Virus record (IMG/VR): IMGVR_UViG_2645727757_000001
Coordinates: 32,001 to 96,000 of that record
DNA length: 64,000 nucleotides
DNA from: a virus
Lineage: Duplodnaviria; Caudoviricetes
Reading direction: 5' to 3' (one strand)
A program made the translations under genes and the position numbers. The notes under the pieces were generated by a model. It was not told where the DNA came from. It searched no databases and was given only the letters and a program-made list of their open reading frames with translations. Position 1 is the stretch's first letter; every line of letters starts with the position of its first letter. This document shows, in pieces, positions 6,960 through 28,364 of the stretch.

Positions 6960-7451
6960 ATGAATGAATTTTACTCAATACAGACTGAAAGTTTTAAAAA
7001 TACATTAATGTTTCCTAGACATAAAAGTACAAATGTAGATGGCTATGAAATAACAATAATGGAATATAGACCAGAAGGAACAGTATTATTGGATAAAGTA
7101 TTTATAAAGCAATTATATGAAGAAAATCCAATACAAAAGGTATTTGAATTCACTCCAACTGTAGAAAATGTTTATGAGCTACCTAAAAATATAATCCATA
7201 CAGAATATTATAATATTATAGTTGAATTAAATAGTAATTACCTTGATAAAAAGGATTACCAATATGATTCAAGTGCTAATACTATCAGTATTAAAAATTC
7301 AGTGCAAATTTTAGGTTCTGATACTATAAAGGTTTATTGCTATGTAGATTCTATGACATACGAATTTGAAAGTGAATATGAATGTTCATTAAATATAGAT
7401 ATTAAATATAATAAGAGCCATAAAATAGGCAACCATAATATATTAATATAG
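6960..7451 (+). CDS. Hypothetical protein, virion module
   Basis: 163-aa ORF with AAGGAG RBS. Confidence 0.6.
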   Translation: MNEFYSIQTESFKNTLMFPRHKSTNVDGYEITIMEYRPEGTVLLDKVFIKQLYEENPIQKVFEFTPTVENVYELPKNIIHTEYYNIIVELNSNYLDKKDYQYDSSANTISIKNSVQILGSDTIKVYCYVDSMTYEFESEYECSLNIDIKYNKSHKIGNHNILI

Positions 7452-7461
7452 GGGGTAAAGC

Positions 7462-9585
7462 ATGGCATATGATATTAATTCCTCCATAAAGGAAGTTCTT
7501 AAAGAAGAAGTAACAAAAGAATATGAAGATAAAATATCTATAGAAGAGCTTTATGAAAAAATAAATAAATTAGAAAAATTTCTAAAAACTCCAATGCAAA
7601 CTGAAATAAAAGAAGTTGGAGATATTATAAAATCAGAAGAAACTAAAAAGACAATTAATGAATTAATCTTTGATATTAAAGTTGCATTTAAGCATTTTTC
7701 TAATGTTGAAAATGAAGTAATGCTCAAGCTAAAGGAAAAAGAATCTGAATTTACAAGAATAATTAAAAACATAGAAAAACAAAATAGAGTTCTTGAAAAT
7801 TACGAATCCTATATAAAAATAAATACAGAACCAATAGTAATAAAAGAAGATTTTACATCAACAAATAATATAGAAACTGATCTTACTTTATATAAAGAAA
7901 GATATGGAACACCAGTTTCTAAAATGACAGCAACAACATTAGTTACTGATTGTTCTGCATTAATGTTACCTAAGACAAGAAGTCTTAATTTAGCTTTTAA
8001 CAACGGAGTTATATCAGCAGATGTTAATATAACAAAACAATATTGTAGTGAAAATGCTAATAAGACTACCTCTTCTAATATACCTAAAAACATTCTAATA
8101 CCTAATTCCGCAGAGATATGGATGGAAGATATATATACAGATGAACCTATAAAGATTTCAGAAATAAACAACAAATATGAAATAAATACTGGAGCTTTAT
8201 GTGAAATAGAAATAAATTTTGAAGCTGTAACTGTTCTTAATGAGATAATATTAAAACCTTGTAGCAAATATCCAGTAGATTTACTTGCAATCGAATATGT
8301 AAGAACTGATTCAGCAAAGGAATCAAGAAAAAATCTTTATATACAAAAGCAATTAAAAAGAGAATATGATTCTAATTTTATAGAAGCTCCAATATCGTAT
8401 AGATTCCCTAATGTATTAGTTAAAAAGATTTATATAACAATAAATCAACTACATTATGAGAGAGTAAATATAAAAGAAGATATTAATACTAAGCTCATAG
8501 AAAGAGCTAAATATAATTTAGAGAATCCTAAATATAATTATGATAATTGCTTATTTAAACCAACATATAAAGATATGATAAGAAAAGATCCAAAGACACC
8601 TATATTTTCTTTAAATGCTGGTGATGACAAGTTAGATGACCTTGAAGCCTTATTATTCAATACAGATAACACCTTAAAAAATAAAATTAAATATAATTAT
8701 AGCTATGGATTAAGGAACGTTACTTTAAATAATAATGAGTTTGATAATACAGGCATTTATGTAAGTAAACCAATAAAAATATTAGATGGTATAAAAGCTG
8801 TAAGTATTATAGTTGATGAAGAGCATAACAAAAATGAAAATGATGAATATGTAACAGATATAGAATATTATATGACAACATCACTTACTCCAGATTTTAA
8901 AAGCTGGAAGTCTATATTACCTACTAATAAGGCTTATATCTATAATGAACTACTACAAGACTATGATGGAAAATGTTATTTAAGATTCCCTGCTACAAAA
9001 GTAACTACAGTTAAAATGGATGGTGTTGACCTTGAAGCTGGGCTTGATTACTTTTTAAAGCATAATGATGAAGGATATATTGAAGCTATTGAGATACCAG
9101 ATATGGATTATATATCTCTATACACAGTAAGCTATCAACCTAATCCAACTGATAATATCATAGAACTTAAAGAGTTAAGTGACGTTTCATCTTATGAAGA
9201 ATTTAATTCAGAAGGAAGATCAAGTTTTATTTTAAAGAATAAAATATATGCAAACAATCTTAAAAATGTACAAGTTAAAATTATTGACGCTATAACTGGA
9301 AAAGTAATAGCTACTGAAGGAGAATCAGTCTTTAATGTAACTAATATGTATAACGTTGAAGAGAGTTATAAAGATTTTACTATAACTGATAAATACCAAT
9401 ATTATGTTAATGGTAAAAATATTTATTTTAATAAAGCAATAAAAGAAAATTATAAAGTAGTTGTCTATTATATTTATGAAATAAATACTATCAGATTTAA
9501 AGCTATTTTGAGAAGAAATACAAAATATGATAAGTATTTAACTCCTGTAGTTAAAAAGCTGGAGTATAAATTTATAACAAAATAA
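7462..9585 (+). CDS. Putative baseplate/tail structural protein
   Basis: 707 aa; N-terminal coiled coil, beta-rich body and C-terminal TPVVKKLEYKF motif shared with neighbours. Confidence 0.5.
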   Translation: MAYDINSSIKEVLKEEVTKEYEDKISIEELYEKINKLEKFLKTPMQTEIKEVGDIIKSEETKKTINELIFDIKVAFKHFSNVENEVMLKLKEKESEFTRIIKNIEKQNRVLENYESYIKINTEPIVIKEDFTSTNNIETDLTLYKERYGTPVSKMTATTLVTDCSALMLPKTRSLNLAFNNGVISADVNITKQYCSENANKTTSSNIPKNILIPNSAEIWMEDIYTDEPIKISEINNKYEINTGALCEIEINFEAVTVLNEIILKPCSKYPVDLLAIEYVRTDSAKESRKNLYIQKQLKREYDSNFIEAPISYRFPNVLVKKIYITINQLHYERVNIKEDINTKLIERAKYNLENPKYNYDNCLFKPTYKDMIRKDPKTPIFSLNAGDDKLDDLEALLFNTDNTLKNKIKYNYSYGLRNVTLNNNEFDNTGIYVSKPIKILDGIKAVSIIVDEEHNKNENDEYVTDIEYYMTTSLTPDFKSWKSILPTNKAYIYNELLQDYDGKCYLRFPATKVTTVKMDGVDLEAGLDYFLKHNDEGYIEAIEIPDMDYISLYTVSYQPNPTDNIIELKELSDVSSYEEFNSEGRSSFILKNKIYANNLKNVQVKIIDAITGKVIATEGESVFNVTNMYNVEESYKDFTITDKYQYYVNGKNIYFNKAIKENYKVVVYYIYEINTIRFKAILRRNTKYDKYLTPVVKKLEYKFITK

Positions 9586-21623: not shown

Positions 21624-21885
21624 GGGAAATGATACTAGTGTATCTCAATTTTTAAATGGTAAAGATGGTGTAATTCCAAAACCACCAAGAAAAGGCGAAA
21701 TAATTAAATGTCTTGTATGTGGTGAACCAATGCCTCCAAGTGCATTTTCTAAAATTCCATCAGTAAGAAAAAGAGAGTTTAAATGGCAATGCCATGAAAA
21801 ATGTATTAATTATATGTTAGATGTATGCGATAGAGAAACTACAGGATTACTAGCGGAAAGAAAAAATGATCCTACATATAAATAA
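21610..21885 (+). CDS. Small putative zinc-finger protein
   Basis: CLVC...CHEKC. Confidence 0.55.
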   Translation: MDYYKGNDTSVSQFLNGKDGVIPKPPRKGEIIKCLVCGEPMPPSAFSKIPSVRKREFKWQCHEKCINYMLDVCDRETTGLLAERKNDPTYK

Positions 21886-22600
21886 TATTATTGATTATTC
21901 TATATGTCCTATGAAATATTTTCTTTCTCAAAAAATAAATATAAATGAAATAAATATAGATGAAAAATATAATAATGCAGTTAAAAGCACTATATTTTCA
22001 TATTTTTATAAAATACAAAACAAAGAAAGTGCTAATTATTCAAGTCTTAAAAGAATATTCGGTAATCTTTGGATAGGAGAAAAGAGCATTGATGAAATTA
22101 TTTTTAAAGAGCCTACATCCTGGAGAGATAAAGAAGATTTCTATAGGAAAAGAGGTATAAAAGCTTTCTATAAATTCCATGAAAGTTTTAAAAATGATAT
22201 TAAATATCCAATACTAATTAACCATGATTACGAGGTTAAAGTAAATAAAAATTTAACTATAAAAGGCACAATAGACTTGATAAGAGAAGATAATGGAGAT
22301 TTAGAGCTTTTAGATATTAGGACTGGAGATACTGTAAGTGAAAATTCTTATATAAATAAAAATTTAAGAATAATATCTTCATGTTATGCCTTTGAAAAAC
22401 TATTTGATATTAAACTAAAAAAAGTTTATTCATATGGATTTGATAAAAATTCATTAACTATAATATCTAAAAATAATGATTATACTGAATTTGAAAAAGC
22501 AATAATCAATATAGCTAAGTGCATATACAATAATTTAGTTTATATTTCTCCAGGATCACATTGTATTAAATGTGCTTATAAAAATAAATGCAGAATATAG
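21866..22600 (+). CDS. PD-(D/E)XK superfamily protein (RecB/AddB/Cas4-like, Fe-S Cys pattern)
   Basis: N-terminal YSICPMKY, GTIDLI, LLDIRTG and C-terminal CIKCAYKNKC. Confidence 0.7.
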   Translation: MILHINNIIDYSICPMKYFLSQKININEINIDEKYNNAVKSTIFSYFYKIQNKESANYSSLKRIFGNLWIGEKSIDEIIFKEPTSWRDKEDFYRKRGIKAFYKFHESFKNDIKYPILINHDYEVKVNKNLTIKGTIDLIREDNGDLELLDIRTGDTVSENSYINKNLRIISSCYAFEKLFDIKLKKVYSYGFDKNSLTIISKNNDYTEFEKAIINIAKCIYNNLVYISPGSHCIKCAYKNKCRI

Positions 22601-22773: not shown

Positions 22774-23313
22774 TTGCGAGGGTTTTTAATGAAGAAACAA
22801 ACAAAAACGGTTCTTGCATTAGATGCTTCTTTATCATCGACTGGTTATGCAATAATTGATTATAACTTAAAACCAATATTAATAAATAGAATTTGTACTG
22901 ACACAAGGGTTAGTGAAGAAGAGAGAATAAGAACTATAGTTAACGATATTGTTGGCTTATGTGTTGTTTATAATATTAAGGAAGCTGTAATTGAGGATCA
23001 GCATTTTAGTATTAATAAAAAAACTGCGATGCAATTATCAAGGCTAAGAGGTGCGATAACTTATGCCTTGATGGAAAAGAATATAACAGTTAGCACCATA
23101 GCACCTACTACCACTAAAAAGGTTTTTTGCGGACGTGGAAATGCAAGTAAAGAAGATGTTGCTGCGGAAGTTTTAAACAAATATCCTAATAACACTTTAA
23201 TAAGAAAAATAGGTCCATTTTCAGACAAATCAGGCAAAAATAAAACTAGTGATATGTATGATGCCTTATGTATAGGGTATTCATATATAGTAGGGAATAG
23301 AAATGAAAAATGA
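22774..23313 (+). CDS. ruvC: Holliday junction resolvase RuvC
   Basis: VLALDASLSSTGYA, AVIED, KKVFCGRGNASKE and DMYDAL catalytic pattern. Confidence 0.85.
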   Translation: MRGFLMKKQTKTVLALDASLSSTGYAIIDYNLKPILINRICTDTRVSEEERIRTIVNDIVGLCVVYNIKEAVIEDQHFSINKKTAMQLSRLRGAITYALMEKNITVSTIAPTTTKKVFCGRGNASKEDVAAEVLNKYPNNTLIRKIGPFSDKSGKNKTSDMYDALCIGYSYIVGNRNEK

Positions 23314-24678: not shown

Positions 24679-24706
24679 AGGTAGGTTCATATGAACCTAC
24701 CTTTTT
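24679..24706. terminator. Bidirectional terminator at the convergence of the two genome arms
   Basis: 24-bp perfect palindrome AGGTAGGTTCATATGAACCTACCT with a T-run on the right and an A-run on the left. Confidence 0.75.
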
Positions 24707-25644
24707 AAATAGAATTTTCTTGCATTAGAAAGAGAATTATTTCCCAAAAATTCTTTTAATTCTATAGAGGACATACCTTCTTCTATAGATTTCATTGCCT
24801 TAGTGTTTCTTAGCATACTTGGATTACATTTTTTATTGAAAGGTAGTTTACTTTTACCCATATTAGATAATAAACGTTGAACACCTCTAGGTCCAAGCCT
24901 ATCTCCACGTTCACCTAAAAATAGATATTCAACTTTAACATCTCTACCTTTTTTTAATCCCCTTGCTACAGCTCTTCCTCTTTCTCTGTAGTAAGGTTCT
25001 AATAAATTAGTGCAATATGAACTTAATTTAAATTTCCTATTTATTTTATCATTTTTTACTATGTACAAGGTATTTTCTTGCAAATCATCTAATTTTAAAT
25101 TACATAATTCACTTAATTTTATTCCTGTATTTATTAAAATAGCTGCTACAAGTCTATCCCTATATGGATATCTACTTTTTATGTAATTAGATAATAATAA
25201 TTCTATTTGCCAATCTTCCATTAGCTTAAAATTAAATCTTGTATCTACAATTTTATTATATAATTTAACAGGATCATTATTTATTTCTTTATATTCTTCT
25301 CTTAAAAAAGAATAAAATAAATCCAAACTACATATCTTTCTTGAATTAGTTGTATCTGAATTTCTTCTTTTATCAAATGAAAAATCAATATAATTTAGTA
25401 TATATTCATCCGAAATATTTCCCAACTTTTCTAATGAAACATTGTAATAATCTACATCATTAAACAATTTATCTTCATCTTCTTTGTATCTAATATACTT
25501 TAAAAATAATACTAAATCAGAAACATAATTCTTAATTGTCAAATCCTTATAGTCTTTTTCTTCCATATAATTTATGAATTTATTAAAATAAGTAGGATAG
25601 ATTAATTTAGTATGTGTACTATGTACATTATCCACAATACTCAC
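24697..25644 (-). CDS. XerC/D-like tyrosine recombinase-fold protein with degenerate active site
   Basis: SAM-like N-terminus (TIKNYVSDL, TNSRKICSL), RDRLVAAILINTGIKLSEL, LFLGERGDRL, PSMLRNTKA, FLGNNSL...FY. Confidence 0.8.
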   Translation of the reverse strand: MSIVDNVHSTHTKLIYPTYFNKFINYMEEKDYKDLTIKNYVSDLVLFLKYIRYKEDEDKLFNDVDYYNVSLEKLGNISDEYILNYIDFSFDKRRNSDTTNSRKICSLDLFYSFLREEYKEINNDPVKLYNKIVDTRFNFKLMEDWQIELLLSNYIKSRYPYRDRLVAAILINTGIKLSELCNLKLDDLQENTLYIVKNDKINRKFKLSSYCTNLLEPYYRERGRAVARGLKKGRDVKVEYLFLGERGDRLGPRGVQRLLSNMGKSKLPFNKKCNPSMLRNTKAMKSIEEGMSSIELKEFLGNNSLSNARKFYLKR

Positions 25645-25840: not shown

Positions 25841-26234
25841 TAATTTCAAAATAAAATTTAATCAAATTAATTTTATAATTTACCATTTTCTAGAATTGCA
25901 CTAAATCTACATTTAGCGAAATTTATCGAAAAAAATACATAAGACAAGAATGGCTCAACCAAGCCATTTGTAAGCTTTTTTACATATAGTGGAAAATGAT
26001 TTACCGTAATTGAATTTCATTGTGCAGTATGTACAGTATGTAAATAGGAAATTTTTTTAAGAAACTTAGACCTGATTCATTAAGAATTTTTACTGGAATT
26101 ATATGTATTTTATATTAAAAATTGCAATTTAGATTTCTATAAAAAAATAATTTCAAGAATTTTTTAAAAGCTATAATTACACAATTAAAATTAACTTAAA
26201 ATATTATTTTCGACAAAAAAGATATTAAAAAACC

Positions 26235-26277
26235 AAAAATACCTAGTAAAATATAAAATTATATTTCACTAGGTATT
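26235..26277 (-). terminator. Intrinsic terminator after the Cas11-like gene
   Basis: AATACCTAGT...ACTAGGTATT extended stem with a U-run on the minus strand. Confidence 0.75.
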
Positions 26278-26296
26278 AAGGAAATTAATATTGTTA

Positions 26297-26560
26297 TTAG
26301 CATTTTAACTTTTCTACATTAGCATTTTGTAATCCCATAGCTATAATGAAACTATATCTAGTGACAATAACATCATCTAAATCAGTTGGTATTTTAATAT
26401 TATTTGCAAAAGATATTCTAAGAAGCATATCTAATATTTGATCTTTATATGCTACTTTATTTTCAGTCATCAAATAAATAAGCCTTTGAATTACATTGTA
26501 GGATTCTTTGCTGCCTACTGCTAAACCATAATTATAATACTTTTTTTCTTCATTCTTCAT
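26297..26560 (-). CDS. Cas11-like (Cas8b1 C-terminal domain-like) small protein; candidate anti-CRISPR
   Basis: 87 aa, AGGAG RBS. The pattern YNYG...YLMTENKVAYKDQILDMLLRISFANNIKIP...F..GL resembles, from memory, the helical C-terminus of clostridial Cas8b1 (Y..G...Y.MLN..K..NK..F.D...R.......P...F..GL). CRISPR-like repeats lie directly upstream. Confidence 0.55.
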   Translation of the reverse strand: MKNEEKKYYNYGLAVGSKESYNVIQRLIYLMTENKVAYKDQILDMLLRISFANNIKIPTDLDDVIVTRYSFIIAMGLQNANVEKLKC

Positions 26561-26589
26561 GTTTTATCTCTCCTAATTTTTATTAATAT

Positions 26590-26653
26590 AATTACATTCC
26601 ACATAGTTAAACTAAAAATTATTTTAATAAACTCCGCATAGTTAAGATAAAAC
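26590..26653 (-). CRISPR. Pair of degenerate type I-B-like CRISPR repeats (29 nt each, 6-nt gap)
   Basis: Minus strand: GTTTTATCTTAACTATGCGGAGTTTATTA-aaataa-TTTTTAGTTTAACTATGTGGAATGTAATT. The copies are 21/29 identical, and the second differs at about 4 positions from the C. difficile-type repeat GTTTTAGATTAACTATATGGAATGTAAAT as recalled. Confidence 0.75.
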
Positions 26654-26658
26654 TATAT

Positions 26659-26688
26659 TTCAAACAAATTATACTAGATAAGTTTGAA
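26659..26688 (-). promoter_or_regulatory. Putative -10 box flanked by an inverted repeat upstream of the repeats
   Basis: Minus-strand TATAAT at 26673-26668 lies inside TTCAAAC-N16-GTTTGAA; no clear -35. Confidence 0.4.
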
Positions 26689-26715
26689 TACATAACTATT
26701 ATACACTAAAATACA

Positions 26716-27207
26716 TTATTCTACAATATCAGTTATGTTTTTAAGAATAAAATCTCTAAATTCTTTTTGAGGTAAAGAAAGACTATATCTTATATCTAGC
26801 TTATCTATTTTGTTGCAAATTAAATAAGCATCTTCACGTTTTTCAAGTATTCTTTGCAACATAATTTTCACATCTAATAGAAATTTAAAATTATTTTTTA
26901 TATTACTAATAGTTTCTTTGCTAGGATGATCTTCTCTTTCTTTTAATATACTATATACAGCAACAGGTCTGTTTAACCCCCTAGCTTCTACTAATATAGT
27001 ATCTCCAGTATTTAAATTTTTATAATAAACTGAATCATTTTCTACTATAGCATCAAAGACAAAACTAGTAGAAATATTTTCATTAACTCTATTTGCTACA
27101 TCTTCTTTGACACTTATCCATATTCCTTCTCCATTACCGTTTTGATAAGATTCATAATCGTAAGGTAAATTTGCTTTTATTAGTTTTTCATTAGATTTAT
27201 TCATCAT
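26716..27207 (-). CDS. Hypothetical protein
   Basis: 163 aa, AAGGGA RBS, GNGEGIW motif. Confidence 0.6.
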   Translation of the reverse strand: MMNKSNEKLIKANLPYDYESYQNGNGEGIWISVKEDVANRVNENISTSFVFDAIVENDSVYYKNLNTGDTILVEARGLNRPVAVYSILKEREDHPSKETISNIKNNFKFLLDVKIMLQRILEKREDAYLICNKIDKLDIRYSLSLPQKEFRDFILKNITDIVE

Positions 27208-27239
27208 CTTTTATTTCCCTTCTTCTCTGTGCAATTTAC

Positions 27240-27578
27240 TTATACCATAAAATCTGGTGGCATTTTGATTTTATCTTTTACTGGTCGCCACATATGTAAA
27301 CAATGTTCATGTATATTTATATAATCCTCTTTTGGTGGGTGTAATTGCATTACTGTTTCATTGTCTTCAAAAAACATATCTTTAATCTTGCACATCGTGT
27401 CCCAAGATGGTGTTACATTTTTATGGCTTACGCTTACGTGTTCCCATTCATCTGTTTTAGCTGCAATTACGAATGTTTCTATATCATCTATTAACAGAAA
27501 AAAAGCACCATTATATTCATCACCAATTTCACCAAAAAGTTTAACTCTATAGTTGTTTAAATAATTTAAATTCTTCAT
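27240..27578 (-). CDS. Conserved phage hypothetical protein (WEHVSVS family)
   Basis: WEHVSVS...PSWDTMCKIKDMFF...HPPKEDYINIHEHCLHMW, a widespread phage family. Confidence 0.75.
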   Translation of the reverse strand: MKNLNYLNNYRVKLFGEIGDEYNGAFFLLIDDIETFVIAAKTDEWEHVSVSHKNVTPSWDTMCKIKDMFFEDNETVMQLHPPKEDYINIHEHCLHMWRPVKDKIKMPPDFMV

Positions 27579-27970
27579 TTTGTTTCTCCCATCTCAATTA
27601 AATTCTCTTTTATACTAAAAAATGCAAATTCATATTTACATAATTTTAAGTTCTCATTTATATGATTATGTAAATCTAATTCAAAATCTTTAATACTTTC
27701 GTATTTTTTCCACCCTCTAGGTAAATAAATATAAAATAATTTATCAAGAGGATTTTCAAAAATAATGCCTGTTCCAGTTGATGATATGTTACAATTCAAC
27801 ATTTCTTTAGGCATAATTATAGATTTTTCTCTCCAATTACATATAGATAACAATTCATTTAAATCAAAATTATCCTTTAAAATATATCCTCTAGGAGATA
27901 TTTTATAACTAATATTTTCATCATCAAATCTAAAGGTATATACATTTATCTTCATTTTATTATTCTCCAT
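27575..27970 (-). CDS. Hypothetical protein, paralog of the adjacent gene
   Basis: Shares FDL....CNW...P..M.NC..S..G.G...EN......LP.GWK.Y with 27960-28364. Confidence 0.7.
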   Translation of the reverse strand: MENNKMKINVYTFRFDDENISYKISPRGYILKDNFDLNELLSICNWREKSIIMPKEMLNCNISSTGTGIIFENPLDKLFYIYLPRGWKKYESIKDFELDLHNHINENLKLCKYEFAFFSIKENLIEMGETK

Positions 27971-28364
27971 ATCCAGTTTTTATGGTTGGTTCTAGCATAA
28001 GCAAAGAAGCCATTAATGCTGTACGATCCATTTTTCCTATAATATTTTCTTTTATATCTTTTATTATTTCTTCAAATGTATTATATTCTTTCCATCCAAA
28101 AGGTAGTGATAAATATATTTTATTAGTAACTGTATTTTCAATTACTAAACCACTTCCTACCTGCGATAATGAACAATTTTTCATTATGTTTGGTCTTTCA
28201 CTACACCAAGCATCCCAATTACATAAATTAAATATTTTCATTAAATCAAATTTTGAATCTTCAACAAATCCATAATTTTTTATACTTATTTCTTTATCAG
28301 TAAACTCAACTTTAGATATATTTATTAGCATTATAATACCTCTTTCCCTTTTGTAAAAGTCCAT
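27960..28364 (-). CDS. Hypothetical protein, paralog of the adjacent gene
   Basis: Same motif set as 27575-27970. The true start is probably the Met after the GAGG RBS. Confidence 0.7.
   Translation of the reverse strand: MDFYKRERGIIMLINISKVEFTDKEISIKNYGFVEDSKFDLMKIFNLCNWDAWCSERPNIMKNCSLSQVGSGLVIENTVTNKIYLSLPFGWKEYNTFEEIIKDIKENIIGKMDRTALMASLLMLEPTIKTGYGE

Follow-up and report, generated by a model that had tools for sequence, protein, structure and literature searches.

A phage leader with two type I-B CRISPR repeat mimics ahead of a gene for a Cas11-like protein: a candidate anti-CRISPR unit with a possibly Cas6-responsive ribosome-binding site

On the minus strand of a phage genome, two degenerate copies of a type I-B CRISPR repeat lie in the 5' leader of ORF87, a gene whose product is modeled as a Cas11-like helical bundle, and we propose, with a probability of about 0.5, that this is the leader of a small anti-CRISPR-type unit in which a repeat decoy is joined to a protein inhibitor. 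The two copies appear to mimic the clostridial/bacillar type I-B repeat and lie 6 nt apart, in a layout like that of the Racr RNA decoys; ORF87 comes directly after them and a putative terminator would end the unit. The mimics, the second one (R2) above all, are expected to be bound and cleaved by Cas6b of the host; the product would be a decoy RNA that has no spacer and keeps Cas proteins occupied, and the ORF87 protein is expected to act as a false small subunit that poisons Cascade. Nucleotides 1-15 of the first mimic (R1) are in addition predicted to mask the ribosome-binding site (RBS) of ORF87, so that a Cas6 cut would unmask the mRNA; this coupling of cutting to unmasking follows from the geometry, provided that the leader is transcribed whole and that Cas6 cuts it. 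As a whole, the unit fits a Racr-plus-AcrIB4-like anti-CRISPR.

Results

Layout of the unit

The window analyzed here is the whole 64,000-nucleotide stretch of DNA, taken from a phage record of 185 kb with 27.6% GC. The elements of the unit follow one another in the order leader, Shine-Dalgarno sequence (SD), ATG, ORF87 and terminator, and are listed below with an upstream ORF (positions are those of the window).

26716-27207, minus strand: upstream ORF of 163 aa, candidate for co-transcription with the unit
26703-26698 and 26673-26668, minus strand: two TATAAT boxes, candidate -10 elements read from the sequence
26653-26625, minus strand: R1, degenerate type I-B CRISPR repeat mimic, GTTTTATCTTAACTATGCGGAGTTTATTA
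26639-26653, minus strand: anti-SD arm (R1 nucleotides 1-15), paired in the minimum free energy (MFE) and centroid structures
26619-26624, minus strand: gap AAATAA between R1 and R2, 6 nt, far below spacer length
26618-26590, minus strand: R2, second degenerate repeat mimic, TTTTTAGTTTAACTATGTGGAATGTAATT
26561-26575, minus strand: UAGGAGAGAUAAAAC, the 3' arm of the helix, with the SD inside it and its last base next to the AUG
26574-26568, minus strand: SD AGGAGAG, with the ATG of ORF87 at 26560
26297-26560, minus strand: ORF87, 87 aa, all-helical with a Cas11-like fold, candidate AcrIB4-like anti-CRISPR
26238-26277, minus strand: intrinsic terminator-like hairpin with a T-run, 18 pairs, 20 nt past the ORF87 stop

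Both TATAAT boxes, candidates for the promoter that is looked for within 250 bp upstream of a Racr, fall in the 62 nt that separate R1 from the stop of the upstream ORF, and were missed by a consensus promoter scan because their -35 matches are poor; the same kind of scan gave a weak promoter-like site (9/12 matches) at 26645-26618, inside R1 and the gap. No terminator was found between the upstream ORF and R1 in a scan of 26100-27300, and transcription through from this ORF, which has no Pfam, NCBIfam or PHROG match, into the leader is possible. The hairpin behind ORF87 was the sole terminator-like site in 26100-27300, a region in which shuffles expect 0.1.

R1 and R2 mimic a type I-B repeat

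R1 is identical at 23 of 29 positions to the array repeat of a Sarcina sp. MAG (contig L007), its first 17 nt being identical to real-array repeats and its 3' handle degenerate (3/8 matches). R2 agrees with the same host-type repeat at 24 of 29 positions, and here the cleavage-site region and the 3' handle (7/8) are well preserved and the 5' end is degenerate. R2 also matched Rfam family CRISPR-DR14 end to end at 31.9 bits (E 0.15; gathering score 45), and R1 gave no Rfam report. Similarity to a known CRISPR repeat, one of the properties by which Racrs are recognized, is found in both units. They are the sole copies of the repeat within the window, and when the whole phage record was searched more strictly, with a 19-nt pattern allowing 2 mismatches at most, R2 alone was matched. 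One repeat-family pattern found no CRISPR array in that record.

Real arrays with this repeat gave 136 exact pattern matches in the Sarcina MAG (78 in L007 and 58 in L023, two contig ranges that overlap) and 43 in I. porci, with repeat-spacer units of about 65-68 nt and spacers of about 35-40 nt. Loci of cas6-cas8b-cas7 adjoin the arrays in the genomes bearing this repeat; Pfam PF09484 (Cas_TM1802) found no Cas8b in genomes G001 and G002, and the cas operons were therefore located via Cas7. A host link through spacers was not obtained, as none of 505 spacers taken at 25-50 nt from the fetched real arrays matched the phage near full length (best match 17 nt).

R1 and R2 might instead be what decay has left of a captured array, or a crRNA-like regulatory RNA (crlRNA; CreA, CreR, Cracr) by which Cascade is directed to a promoter. 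Phages and prophages possess arrays built from this repeat family, as seen in our viral contigs and in the available part of PMC4556805, and viral crlRNAs of type I-B are described in the consulted portion of 10.1101/2024.10.29.618823. However, R1 and R2 are separated by 6 nt, whereas spacers in real arrays have about 35-40 nt, and a (mini-)array would have spacers of about repeat length or longer; a third repeat is absent downstream. A crlRNA, as defined in the same portion of that preprint, has a spacer-like segment in which at least 9 PAM-proximal positions match the promoter of a cas or toxin gene, and the 6 nt between the repeats hold no such spacer-like promoter match. We consider both versions very improbable. 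A search for comparable arrangements gave no tandem doublet of the repeat core in viral contigs and 5 doublet loci in metagenome contigs, the 4 examined being ordinary tandem repeats. A search for solitary repeat copies in viral contigs returned 5 loci, of which the 3 with a single match lay inside arrays and the other 2 were arrays by the regular spacing of their matches.

ORF87 is modeled with a Cas11-like fold

The AF2 model of ORF87 reached a pLDDT of 93.3, and single-sequence AF2 was poor (51.9). When this model was compared with 48,161 chains, the top 4 matches were Cascade chains or CasB, with 80-86 aligned residues and Z of 5.3-6.9 (5u07_B, 6.9; 9cro_J, 6.5; 3wa8_B CasB, 6.4; 8fcj_J from a type I-B CAST Cascade, 5.3), and Cse2, Csm and Csa5 chains followed at ranks 8, 10, 23 and 33; all Z-scores for ORF87 are below 8, where the tool warns that a common helical arrangement can give such values. 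In a second fold search the top 4 matches were all Cas11-type, namely Csm1 residues 664-752 at Z 6.9 followed by three chains of type I-A Cascade at Z 6.3-6.5, with the next match at 4.8. The description of the neighboring gene as Cas11-like in the initial annotation thus agrees with fold matches at Z 6.3-6.9, in the tool's caution range, and on the predicted model the fold class of ORF87 is a Cas11-like helical bundle. Foldseek against PDB and BFVD returned nothing at E <= 0.001, and the ESM Atlas nothing above 0.79.

At the sequence level, the closest homologues are P0002 (80% identity) and P0003 (about 42-43%; 43% by phmmer and 42% in a MAFFT alignment), and both have N-termini conserved with ORF87. 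In hhalign comparisons with two Cas8b proteins from repeat-bearing genomes, the best matches fell in the C-terminal part of each (540-577 of 604, E 0.02; 381-418 of 450, E 0.15) and were sub-threshold; no significant sequence similarity of ORF87 to the Cas8b C-terminus or Cas11b was found. No Cas protein was among the phmmer matches to ORF87 in 1.84 billion representatives; a plant-like ankyrin protein in that list was regarded as spurious. A word-index protein search recovered ORF87 itself and P0002 only, an extended search with homologue alignment A2 found nothing, and a profile search of PDB sequences found nothing relevant. ORF87 had no match in two repeat-carrying genomes, and tblastn against 50,697 phage records gave none with ORF87 and only three weak ATPase matches (E >= 0.2) with P0003. 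Pattern matches for ORF87 and its alignment in viral, metagenome and genome contigs (17, 582, 596 and 416) included no confirmed relative.

ORF87 is an orphan on a mobile element, outside any cas operon: none of 19 neighboring ORFs matched a cas family above the Pfam curated cut-off, and the sole cas-related match was a weak one to Cas4 (19.4 bits, cut-off 22.7) in a PD-(D/E)XK nuclease about 4 kb away. The only distant homologue whose DNA was examined, P0005, for which the source names Clostridium thermobutyricum, has the domain fused to an AbrB/MazE DNA-binding domain. Its leader contains no repeat, and neither the repeat family nor Cas7 (DevR) was found in its genome with the queries used; judged from this context, the function of the domain could be unrelated to CRISPR.

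A predicted helix between R1 and the ribosome-binding site

It had been proposed in the initial annotation that the 5' end of R1 pairs with the segment running from the SD to the AUG. Folding of 26660-26540 with ViennaRNA, as suggested there, recovered exactly this helix in the MFE structure: 26653-26644 pairs with 26561-26570 through 9 Watson-Crick pairs and U26644-G26570, followed by a 2x2 internal loop and then by 3 pairs between 26641-26639 and 26573-26575. The MFE was -19.5 kcal/mol (z = -3.55) and was equalled by 1 of 200 shuffles. In the full leader, the unpaired probability was <=0.05 at 13 of the 15 positions of the 3' arm, and the SD positions were paired with a probability of at least 0.95. 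The MFE structure has the helix as the closing stem of a domain, about 95 nt in size, whose apical part contains the core of R2. The idea that the RBS arm is part of a longer inverted copy of R1 was rejected by eye, with the similarity ending after 15 nt.

The C at position 8 of R1 (C8) had been described both as needed for the pairing and as a departure from the repeat family. The first part stands, since the 9-bp run requires C8. By contrast, the second part does not: C8 is found in real arrays of Sarcina, Inconstantimicrobium and Aeribacillus, where it is the majority letter. The case for C8 as a special adaptation fails, as several Bacillota have this letter natively in their arrays.

Conservation of the leader

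Relatives of the leader were obtained from sequencing-run contigs, and comprise one full-length leader (present in two runs) of about 92% identity and one partial, more distant leader (X2 record 6), in which a 9-nt insertion beside 26561 and a few shared changes are visible; no RNA run was among the sequencing runs listed. A blastn search of 50,697 phage records with 26200-27300 as query found nothing. The listed changes in the 92% relative number 5 in the 58 nt of the repeats and 3 in the other 42 nt of the leader, and on these sequences the repeats appear not better conserved than their surroundings. The helix is kept in this relative, with a single change in 30 stem positions. That change, G26653A, disrupts the G-C pair at the end of the helix and is uncompensated. 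The covariation that the initial annotation had hoped to see among homologues is therefore missing from this one relative of about 92% identity, the sole stem change being disruptive, and its expectation of conserved pairing holds in part: the helix is retained, but one pair is broken and none is compensated. The RBS of the relative is computed to be masked (9.1 kcal/mol) and to be freed only by the predicted R2 cut (1.3 kcal/mol), because its R2 has also gained a complementary 5' end.

Chance or selection

A 9-bp AT-rich match can arise by chance, as the initial annotation had cautioned. In 5000 dinucleotide shuffles, a perfect complement of at least 9 nt between the RBS window (-18 to +3) and the leader appeared in 3.5% when 137 nt upstream was considered and in 1.1% with 82 nt, and among 150 SD-bearing ORFs of at least 60 aa in the phage's own 185-kb genome it was present in 2. 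The cost of opening the RBS of ORF87, 8.4 kcal/mol, ranked 25th of these 150 (mean 5.6, sd 2.7); masking of the RBS is not exceptional within this genome. The duplex between own leader and own RBS ranked first of 150, narrowly (-14.4 versus -13.8 and -13.5 kcal/mol). The stronger result is the energy specific to R1, an outlier: nucleotides 1-15 of R1 form a duplex of -14.0 kcal/mol with this RBS, with the next best of 150 at -9.1 (mean -4.9, sd 1.9; z about -4.9), and the whole R1-R2 segment gave -14.6 against -11.8 kcal/mol, both tests having been defined post hoc, after the observation. The pairing thus exceeds chance only moderately, which is suggestive only.

These figures bear on a reading in which the match arose fortuitously, R1 and R2 serve as decoys or are relics, ORF87 is expressed constitutively, and an AT-rich spacer between SD and AUG happens to match the A/U-rich end of a repeat. 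The frequencies among shuffles and genes are in keeping with this reading, as are the lead of only 0.6 kcal/mol of the own-leader duplex, the rank of the opening cost and the want of compensation in the 92% relative; a look-elsewhere effect adds to them, because the observation was chosen by eye in a 64-kb window. On the other hand, it leaves the R1-specific outlier to accident, together with complementarity at 12 of 15 positions plus a G-U pair, and the RBS arm is intact in the 92% relative despite 8 changes in the 100-nt leader, although zero changes in 15 nt would be expected in about 29% of cases. We regard fortuitous and selected complementarity as about equally likely, and put this reading, with all its parts, a little short of even odds.

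Predicted Cas6 cleavage and a possible translational switch

By analogy with the 8-nt tag of type I-B systems, Cas6b is predicted to cut between 26633 and 26632 in R1 and between 26598 and 26597 in R2. The premise of the initial annotation that Cas6 cuts 8 nt from the 3' end of the repeat is documented for type I-B in the available part of Richter 2012 (PMC3479195), which also reports that Mm Cas6b cleaves a single repeat in vitro and leaves an 8-nt tag; a cleavage site for the C. difficile repeat is proposed in the consulted part of Boudry 2015 (PMC4556805). The further premise, that a cut would detach the anti-SD strand, is borne out by the geometry: the arm lies 5' of both predicted sites. 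As in known masking leaders, an anti-SD strand is present with a cleavage site between it and the RBS, the sites here being placed by analogy. In the intact leader, opening the RBS is computed to cost 8.4-11.1 kcal/mol; this falls to 0.9 kcal/mol after the R1 cut and to 1.3 kcal/mol after the R2 cut.

Some phage mRNAs become translationally active once host RNases have processed them, and Csy4 has been used likewise in engineered systems. By analogy, R1 may mask the SD until a Cas6b cut in R2 (or R1) frees it, so that ORF87 would be made mainly in hosts in which a cognate type I-B system is expressed, and the same cut would make the decoy RNA. We hold this Cas6-activated switch to be plausible, at odds well below even. 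It is favored by a helix present in both MFE and centroid structures at the z-score given above, by the near-complete pairing of the SD and the collapse of the opening cost after either predicted cut, by the 4.9 kcal/mol that separate this RBS from the next best of 150 as a partner of R1, and by the 92% relative, whose masked RBS would pass from 9.1 to 1.3 kcal/mol on the R2 cut; a single repeat sufficed for Mm Cas6b in vitro in the part of PMC3479195 available.

By contrast, several observations speak against the switch. Covariation is absent in the 92% relative, where the only stem change breaks a pair, complements of equal length arise at the rates noted for shuffles and genes, the masking cost is unexceptional, and the argument from C8 fails. 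The promoter-like site at 26645-26618 lies within R1 and the gap, and a transcript starting there would therefore leave R1 outside the mRNA. Moreover, cutting would leave the mRNA with a crRNA 5' handle, and Cas5/Cas7 might load on the 29-nt leader and block the RBS again. Finally, full-text searches found no natural case of Cas6 acting on a phage acr mRNA. The complete device, in which a Cas6b cut in a leader mimic would both free a decoy crRNA and unmask the RBS of a Cas11 mimic, with the inhibitor made only where type I-B is on, is marginally less probable than the switch as such. An effect in trans of host crRNA 3' handles on this RBS was also considered, as speculation.

The helix could also serve without Cas6, either as a constitutive attenuator of a possibly harmful Cas11 mimic or as a closing stem that stabilizes the decoy repeats and presents them. 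The 95-nt domain with the R2 core at its apex would suit such a role, as would the need for tight control of acr expression that is stated in the available parts of PMC13551039 and 10.64898/2026.07.27.740549. However, conservation gives it no support, and any Cas6 cut in the repeats would sever the helix; full independence from Cas6 therefore requires that the repeats not be substrates. We consider this use of the helix unlikely.

Discussion

Racr RNA decoys and Cas-derived protein inhibitors of the AcrIB4 type are both recent discoveries, and the two kinds of inhibitor appear joined here in one small unit directed at type I-B. The control that phages exert on the timing and amount of their anti-CRISPRs has so far been traced mostly to Aca repressors. 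If the switch is real, it would rank as the first Cas6-gated translational switch in nature and as the first device to couple a racr with an acr, in which a phage employs the host CRISPR nuclease as a sensor, a new counter-defense logic; a leader that reads the presence of Cas6 would also be a ready part for Cas6-controlled gene expression. Even without the switch, the unit offers two candidate type I-B inhibitors, a tandem repeat decoy and a Cas11-fold protein, the latter without detectable sequence similarity to Cas11.

Leaders opened by processing share with this one an upstream anti-SD strand, an endonuclease site in between, and translation freed by cleavage; they comprise phage mRNAs activated by host RNases and engineered Csy4/Cas6f designs, and full-text searches gave no natural pairing of Cas6 with a phage acr mRNA. 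As far as the sources consulted go, CreA, CreR and Cracr are likewise degenerate repeat pairs outside arrays, with which mobile elements manipulate Cas proteins, but a spacer-like segment matching a cas or creT promoter lies between those repeats, and only 6 nt lie between R1 and R2.

In the portion of Katz et al. (bioRxiv 10.1101/2023.06.24.545427) consulted, homology is described between AcrIB4 and the C-terminal 90 aa of Cas8b (38% identity), with homologues of AcrIB4 reported only in Listeria, and in the accessible part of a later preprint (10.1101/2025.06.06.658234) it is proposed to replace Cas11. By these partial accounts, a repeat mimic is not described beside AcrIB4, and the likeness of ORF87 is at the level of fold (Z 6.3-6.9) and sub-threshold profiles only, with AcrIB4 compared by description. 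Both are nevertheless small orphan proteins of mobile elements, related to the Cas11 part of the type I-B Cascade and encoded outside a cas operon.

According to the available text of Camara-Wilpert et al. 2023 (PMC10651486), Racrs are found in clusters with acr genes, the acrIC5-racrIC1 pair is bicistronic, RacrIF1 is without a 5' handle, and SRUFinder retained only matches without association to other partial repeats. Against that text, our unit differs in having two repeat units 6 nt apart, an arrangement that the published finder would set aside, and in placing the mimics upstream of the gene, in its 5' leader, rather than downstream. Cut twice, it would release an RNA in which a degenerate 5' handle is followed by 6 nt and a 3' handle, in contrast to RacrIF1, and its repeats are complementary to an RBS, a feature not described for Racrs in the same text. 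The system addressed is type I-B, a term absent from the main text of PMC10651486. What the unit shares with the Racrs of that text is its basic plan, namely intergenic CRISPR-repeat mimics of viral origin that lie beside a candidate acr gene, very likely on one transcript.

Organization of the repeat unit and its neighbours

The phage record (a virus of 185,364 bp with 27.6% GC) carries two degenerate type I-B CRISPR repeat mimics, R1 and R2, in the 5' leader of ORF87, a gene for an 87-aa protein with a Cas11-like fold. The unit is laid out as follows.

26718-26716, minus: stop codon of a 163-aa upstream ORF, read from the sequence
62-nt gap from this stop to R1, minus: two TATAAT boxes (26703-26698 and 26673-26668)
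26653-26625, minus: R1, GTTTTATCTTAACTATGCGGAGTTTATTA
6 nt between R1 and R2, minus: AAATAA
26618-26590, minus: R2, TTTTTAGTTTAACTATGTGGAATGTAATT
26574-26568, minus: Shine-Dalgarno AGGAGAG, following 14 nt after R2
26560 (ATG) to 26297 (end), minus: ORF87, 87 aa
26277-26238, minus: terminator-like hairpin, the sole one in the region

All 29 positions of R2 were aligned with Rfam CRISPR-DR14 at 31.9 bits, which falls short of the model's gathering score (45); Rfam did not report R1. No further copy of the repeat occurs in the window, and a stricter 19-nt pattern found R2 alone in the whole phage record. The 6-nt gap is too short for a spacer, and on this ground both an array and a crlRNA/Cracr were rejected as descriptions of the unit. 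We give a probability of roughly 0.5 to its being an anti-CRISPR unit made of repeat mimics and a Cas11-fold protein.

The following genes lie nearby in the window.

27575-27970 and 27960-28364, minus: adjacent, overlapping paralogous ORFs of 131 and 134 aa
27240-27578, minus: 112-aa DUF7694 protein (E 2.6e-29), phrog_7839
24697-25644, minus: tyrosine recombinase (Phage_integrase, E 6.7e-16)
21866-22600 and 22774-23313, plus: PD-(D/E)XK nuclease beside a RuvC-like resolvase (E 6.6e-16)

The two paralogues share 33% identity across 99 aa (E 4e-19) and have no Pfam or PHROG family. They are part of a row of small uncharacterized genes that precedes the repeat unit; the DUF7694 gene is two genes upstream of the unit. 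The tyrosine recombinase, some 650 nt past the ORF87 terminator, could be a temperate lifestyle marker or a resolvase. The nuclease gave a weak Cas4-family match (PF01930, E 0.0012, below the cut-off), and with its RuvC-like partner it probably serves recombination in the phage and is not a cas gene.

Predicted pairing of R1 with the ribosome binding site

The initial annotation proposed that R1 masks the ORF87 ribosome binding site (RBS) and that Cas6 cutting unmasks it. The helix is present as it was written, both on reading the sequence and on folding: nine Watson-Crick pairs join 26653-26645 with 26561-26569, next come the wobble pair U26644-G26570 and a 2x2 internal loop, and the helix ends with three pairs of 26641-26639 with 26573-26575. 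It appears in both the MFE and the centroid structure of 26660-26540, the MFE being -19.5 kcal/mol (z = -3.55), with an equally good fold in 1 of 200 shuffles.

Evidence that such pairing exceeds chance was mixed on four general tests and stronger on repeat-specific ones. When the leader upstream was shuffled and the RBS window (-18 to +3) kept as it is, perfect complements of at least 9 nt arose in 3.5% of 137-nt leaders (n=5000) and in 1.1% of 82-nt leaders. A complement of at least 9 nt between leader and RBS window was found for 2 of 150 genes in a crude phage gene set (ORFs of at least 60 aa with a Shine-Dalgarno core 5-16 nt upstream); the only other such gene, which served as a control, starts near 140389 on the plus strand of the whole phage record, outside the window. 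Opening the ORF87 RBS costs 8.4 kcal/mol (ensemble, -100 to +30 transcript), ranking 25 of 150 (mean 5.6, sd 2.7), while its own-leader duplex ranked first of 150, narrowly (-14.4 versus -13.8, and three at -13.5). In two repeat-specific tests framed post hoc, once the helix had been noticed, R1 nucleotides 1-15 paired with the ORF87 RBS at -14.0 kcal/mol (next best among the 150 RBS windows, -9.1; mean -4.9, sd 1.9), and the entire 64-nt R1-R2 segment at -14.6 (next, -11.8). We read the complementarity as suggestive, at about the 1% level before any correction for the way it came to be selected, and that the match is fortuitous remains close to an even bet.

C8 belongs to natural repeats

R1-type 5' halves were found at 32 loci when one genome per species was scanned, with long arrays in a Sarcina sp. 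MAG, Inconstantimicrobium porci, Aeribacillus and Paranoxybacillus. The two Sarcina loci, whose contig ranges overlap, hold 78 and 58 full-length matches to GTTTTATCTTAACTATGAGGAATGTAAAT, one with A at position 8, and C occupies this position in 42 of 46 I. porci repeats. The first 17 nt of R1 are an exact copy of the natural repeat's 5' half. C8, noted earlier as a departure from the C. difficile-type repeat that the pairing needs, is therefore usual in real arrays and does not represent an adaptation by the phage; if either side was fitted for pairing, it was the RBS side.

Compact putative cas6-cas8b-cas7 operons adjoin the arrays in genomes with C8 repeats, their cas7 identified by family match and the other genes assigned from order and size.

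L036:9592-10320 to 7340-8233, minus: putative cas6-cas8b-cas7 operon
L037:2305-5766, plus: putative cas6-cas8b-cas7 operon

Their putative Cas8b proteins are very unequal in length, at 450 and 604 aa; neither is recognised by Pfam Cas_TM1802.

Predicted Cas6 cleavage and RBS release

PMC3479195 describes an 8-nt 5' tag on type I-B crRNAs and in vitro cutting by Mm Cas6b for which a single repeat suffices, and PMC4556805 gives the same cut position as proposed for the C. difficile repeat. By analogy, cuts would fall at 26633|26632 in R1 and 26598|26597 in R2. R2 appears the more credible substrate, since it keeps 7 of 8 handle positions against 3 of 8 in R1.

Computed cost of opening the ORF87 RBS
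Leader starting at 26660: 8.4 kcal/mol
Leader starting at 26653: 11.1 kcal/mol
After R1 cut: 0.9 kcal/mol
After R2 cut: 1.3 kcal/mol

Given this fall in opening cost, the proposed release is sound as thermodynamics. Activation of ORF87 translation by Cas6 cutting of a masked leader is a coherent and testable interpretation, but a weak promoter-like site lies at 26645-26618, inside R1 and the gap, and a start there would exclude R1 from the mRNA. Moreover, Cas5 and Cas7 might load on the handle-bearing cut mRNA and re-cover its 29-nt leader. Full-text literature searches yielded no natural acr gene whose translation depends on Cas6, and the supplementary SRU tables of PMC10651486 may list comparable loci.

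Relatives of the leader

ORF87 relatives are very few: P0002, 80% identical and encoded on a 609-bp contig, and P0003 (43% identity by phmmer, 42% in alignment). Scans of viral, metagenome and genome contigs recovered no ORF87 locus. When contigs from four public runs were compared with 26000-27300, one relative, seen as X2 record 4 and X3 record 9, spanned the whole unit. Record 4 differs from the phage at 81 of 1017 bases, and the relative has 11 listed changes in the 264 nt of ORF87 and eight in the leader.

Leader changes in the full-unit relative (RNA sense)
A26658G: upstream of R1
G26653A: disrupts the G-C pair at the helix end
G26632A: brings R1 nearer the family repeat
G26612U and U26611C: make the R2 5' end match that of R1
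G26595A: R2 handle
A26583G and A26578U: between R2 and the Shine-Dalgarno

The 15-nt RBS arm is identical. The covariation that had been looked for in support of the helix is absent, because the sole change among 30 stem positions is disruptive, and the repeats are no better conserved (5 changes in 58 nt) than the other leader positions (3 in 42 nt). In a leader rebuilt by script from the listed positions the RBS is still masked (9.1 kcal/mol); cutting R2 lowers this to 1.3 kcal/mol, and cutting R1 alone leaves 5.5 because the relative's R2 can pair with the RBS. X2 record 6, a partial contig from a more distant relative, carries 9 extra nt next to 26561 (window 26561-26562), just before the start codon. 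This insertion supplies another in-frame AUG and resembles a duplication of codons one to three; the AGAUAAAA stretch of the arm is retained. Translational activation by Cas6 relies on a single helix whose statistical weight is modest, the relative gives it no comparative support, and its C8 argument is refuted; in our judgement it is plausible but rather unlikely.

Cas11 likeness of ORF87

A single-sequence AF2 model of ORF87 was poor (pLDDT 51.9), while a three-sequence alignment gave five helices with pLDDT 93.3 and pTM 0.85. Foldseek returned nothing at E <= 0.001 from PDB and BFVD for this model. An exhaustive aligner was run on 48,161 chains; its Z scores below 8, where all ORF87 matches fall, may reflect a common helical arrangement.

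Top-ranked structural matches of ORF87 (all Z below 8)
1: 5u07_B, Cascade chain, 161 residues; Z 6.9, 80 aligned
2: 9cro_J, type I-A Cascade; Z 6.5, 83 aligned
3: 3wa8_B, CasB; Z 6.4, 86 aligned
4: 8fcj_J, type I-B CAST Cascade; Z 5.3, 81 aligned

Lower ranks held Cse2 (2zca, 8), a Csm chain (8bmw, 10), the Csm1 C-terminus (6ifk, 13), Csa5 (3zc4, 23) and a type I-E chain (8yb6_K, 33). We take CasB, Cse2 and Csa5 to be names for Cas11-type small subunits, and chain size suggests that the unnamed Cascade chains among the top matches are of this type as well. In a second search the leading rows, at Z 6.3-6.9, were the C-terminal domain of Csm1 and three type I-A chains, and the next row was at 4.8. 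The Cas11-like reading is persuasive because one family holds the top ranks and the gene adjoins CRISPR repeats. An ORF87 profile best matched C-terminal parts of the putative Cas8b from I. porci (540-577 of 604, E 0.02) and the Sarcina MAG (381-418 of 450, E 0.15), a weak hint of Cas8b/Cas11 likeness; sequence and profile searches gave no other similarity to Cas proteins.

One clear distant homologue, P0005, was found in 386 scored genomes of the order of the repeat-bearing genome G002 (15 more were unscored).

L048:1444-1941, minus: P0005, 140-aa prophage protein, named by its source as AbrB/MazE/SpoVT family from Clostridium thermobutyricum

In P0005 the ORF87-like domain follows a MazE-type domain (PF04014, E 1.1e-5) that forms the N-terminal part of the fusion. 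The gene adjoins an endolysin-like ORF, read from sequence, and an HTH protein, and its leader is ordinary, short and without a repeat. The genome showed no arrays of the R1/R2 repeat family (15 loose matches versus 10 for a control pattern), and a Cas7/DevR family query found nothing there. The fusion fits equally well an inhibitor with its own DNA-binding autoregulator and a plain phage regulator; Acr proteins bearing HTH domains are mentioned in 10.1101/2023.06.24.545427.

Comparison with known systems

Racrs are solitary viral repeat mimics that are bound and cut by Cas6 and sequester Cas proteins. They are found clustered with acr genes, in one case as an acr-racr pair on a single transcript (PMC10651486). 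AcrIB4, a Listeria mobile-element protein, inhibits type I-B and is homologous to the last 90 Cas8b residues (10.1101/2023.06.24.545427), and a later preprint proposes that it displaces Cas11 (10.1101/2025.06.06.658234). The phage unit looks like Racr-type and AcrIB4-type elements joined. What is new in it is a tandem doublet with a 6-nt gap, the position of the repeats in the 5' leader of the protein gene, and complementarity between repeat and RBS.
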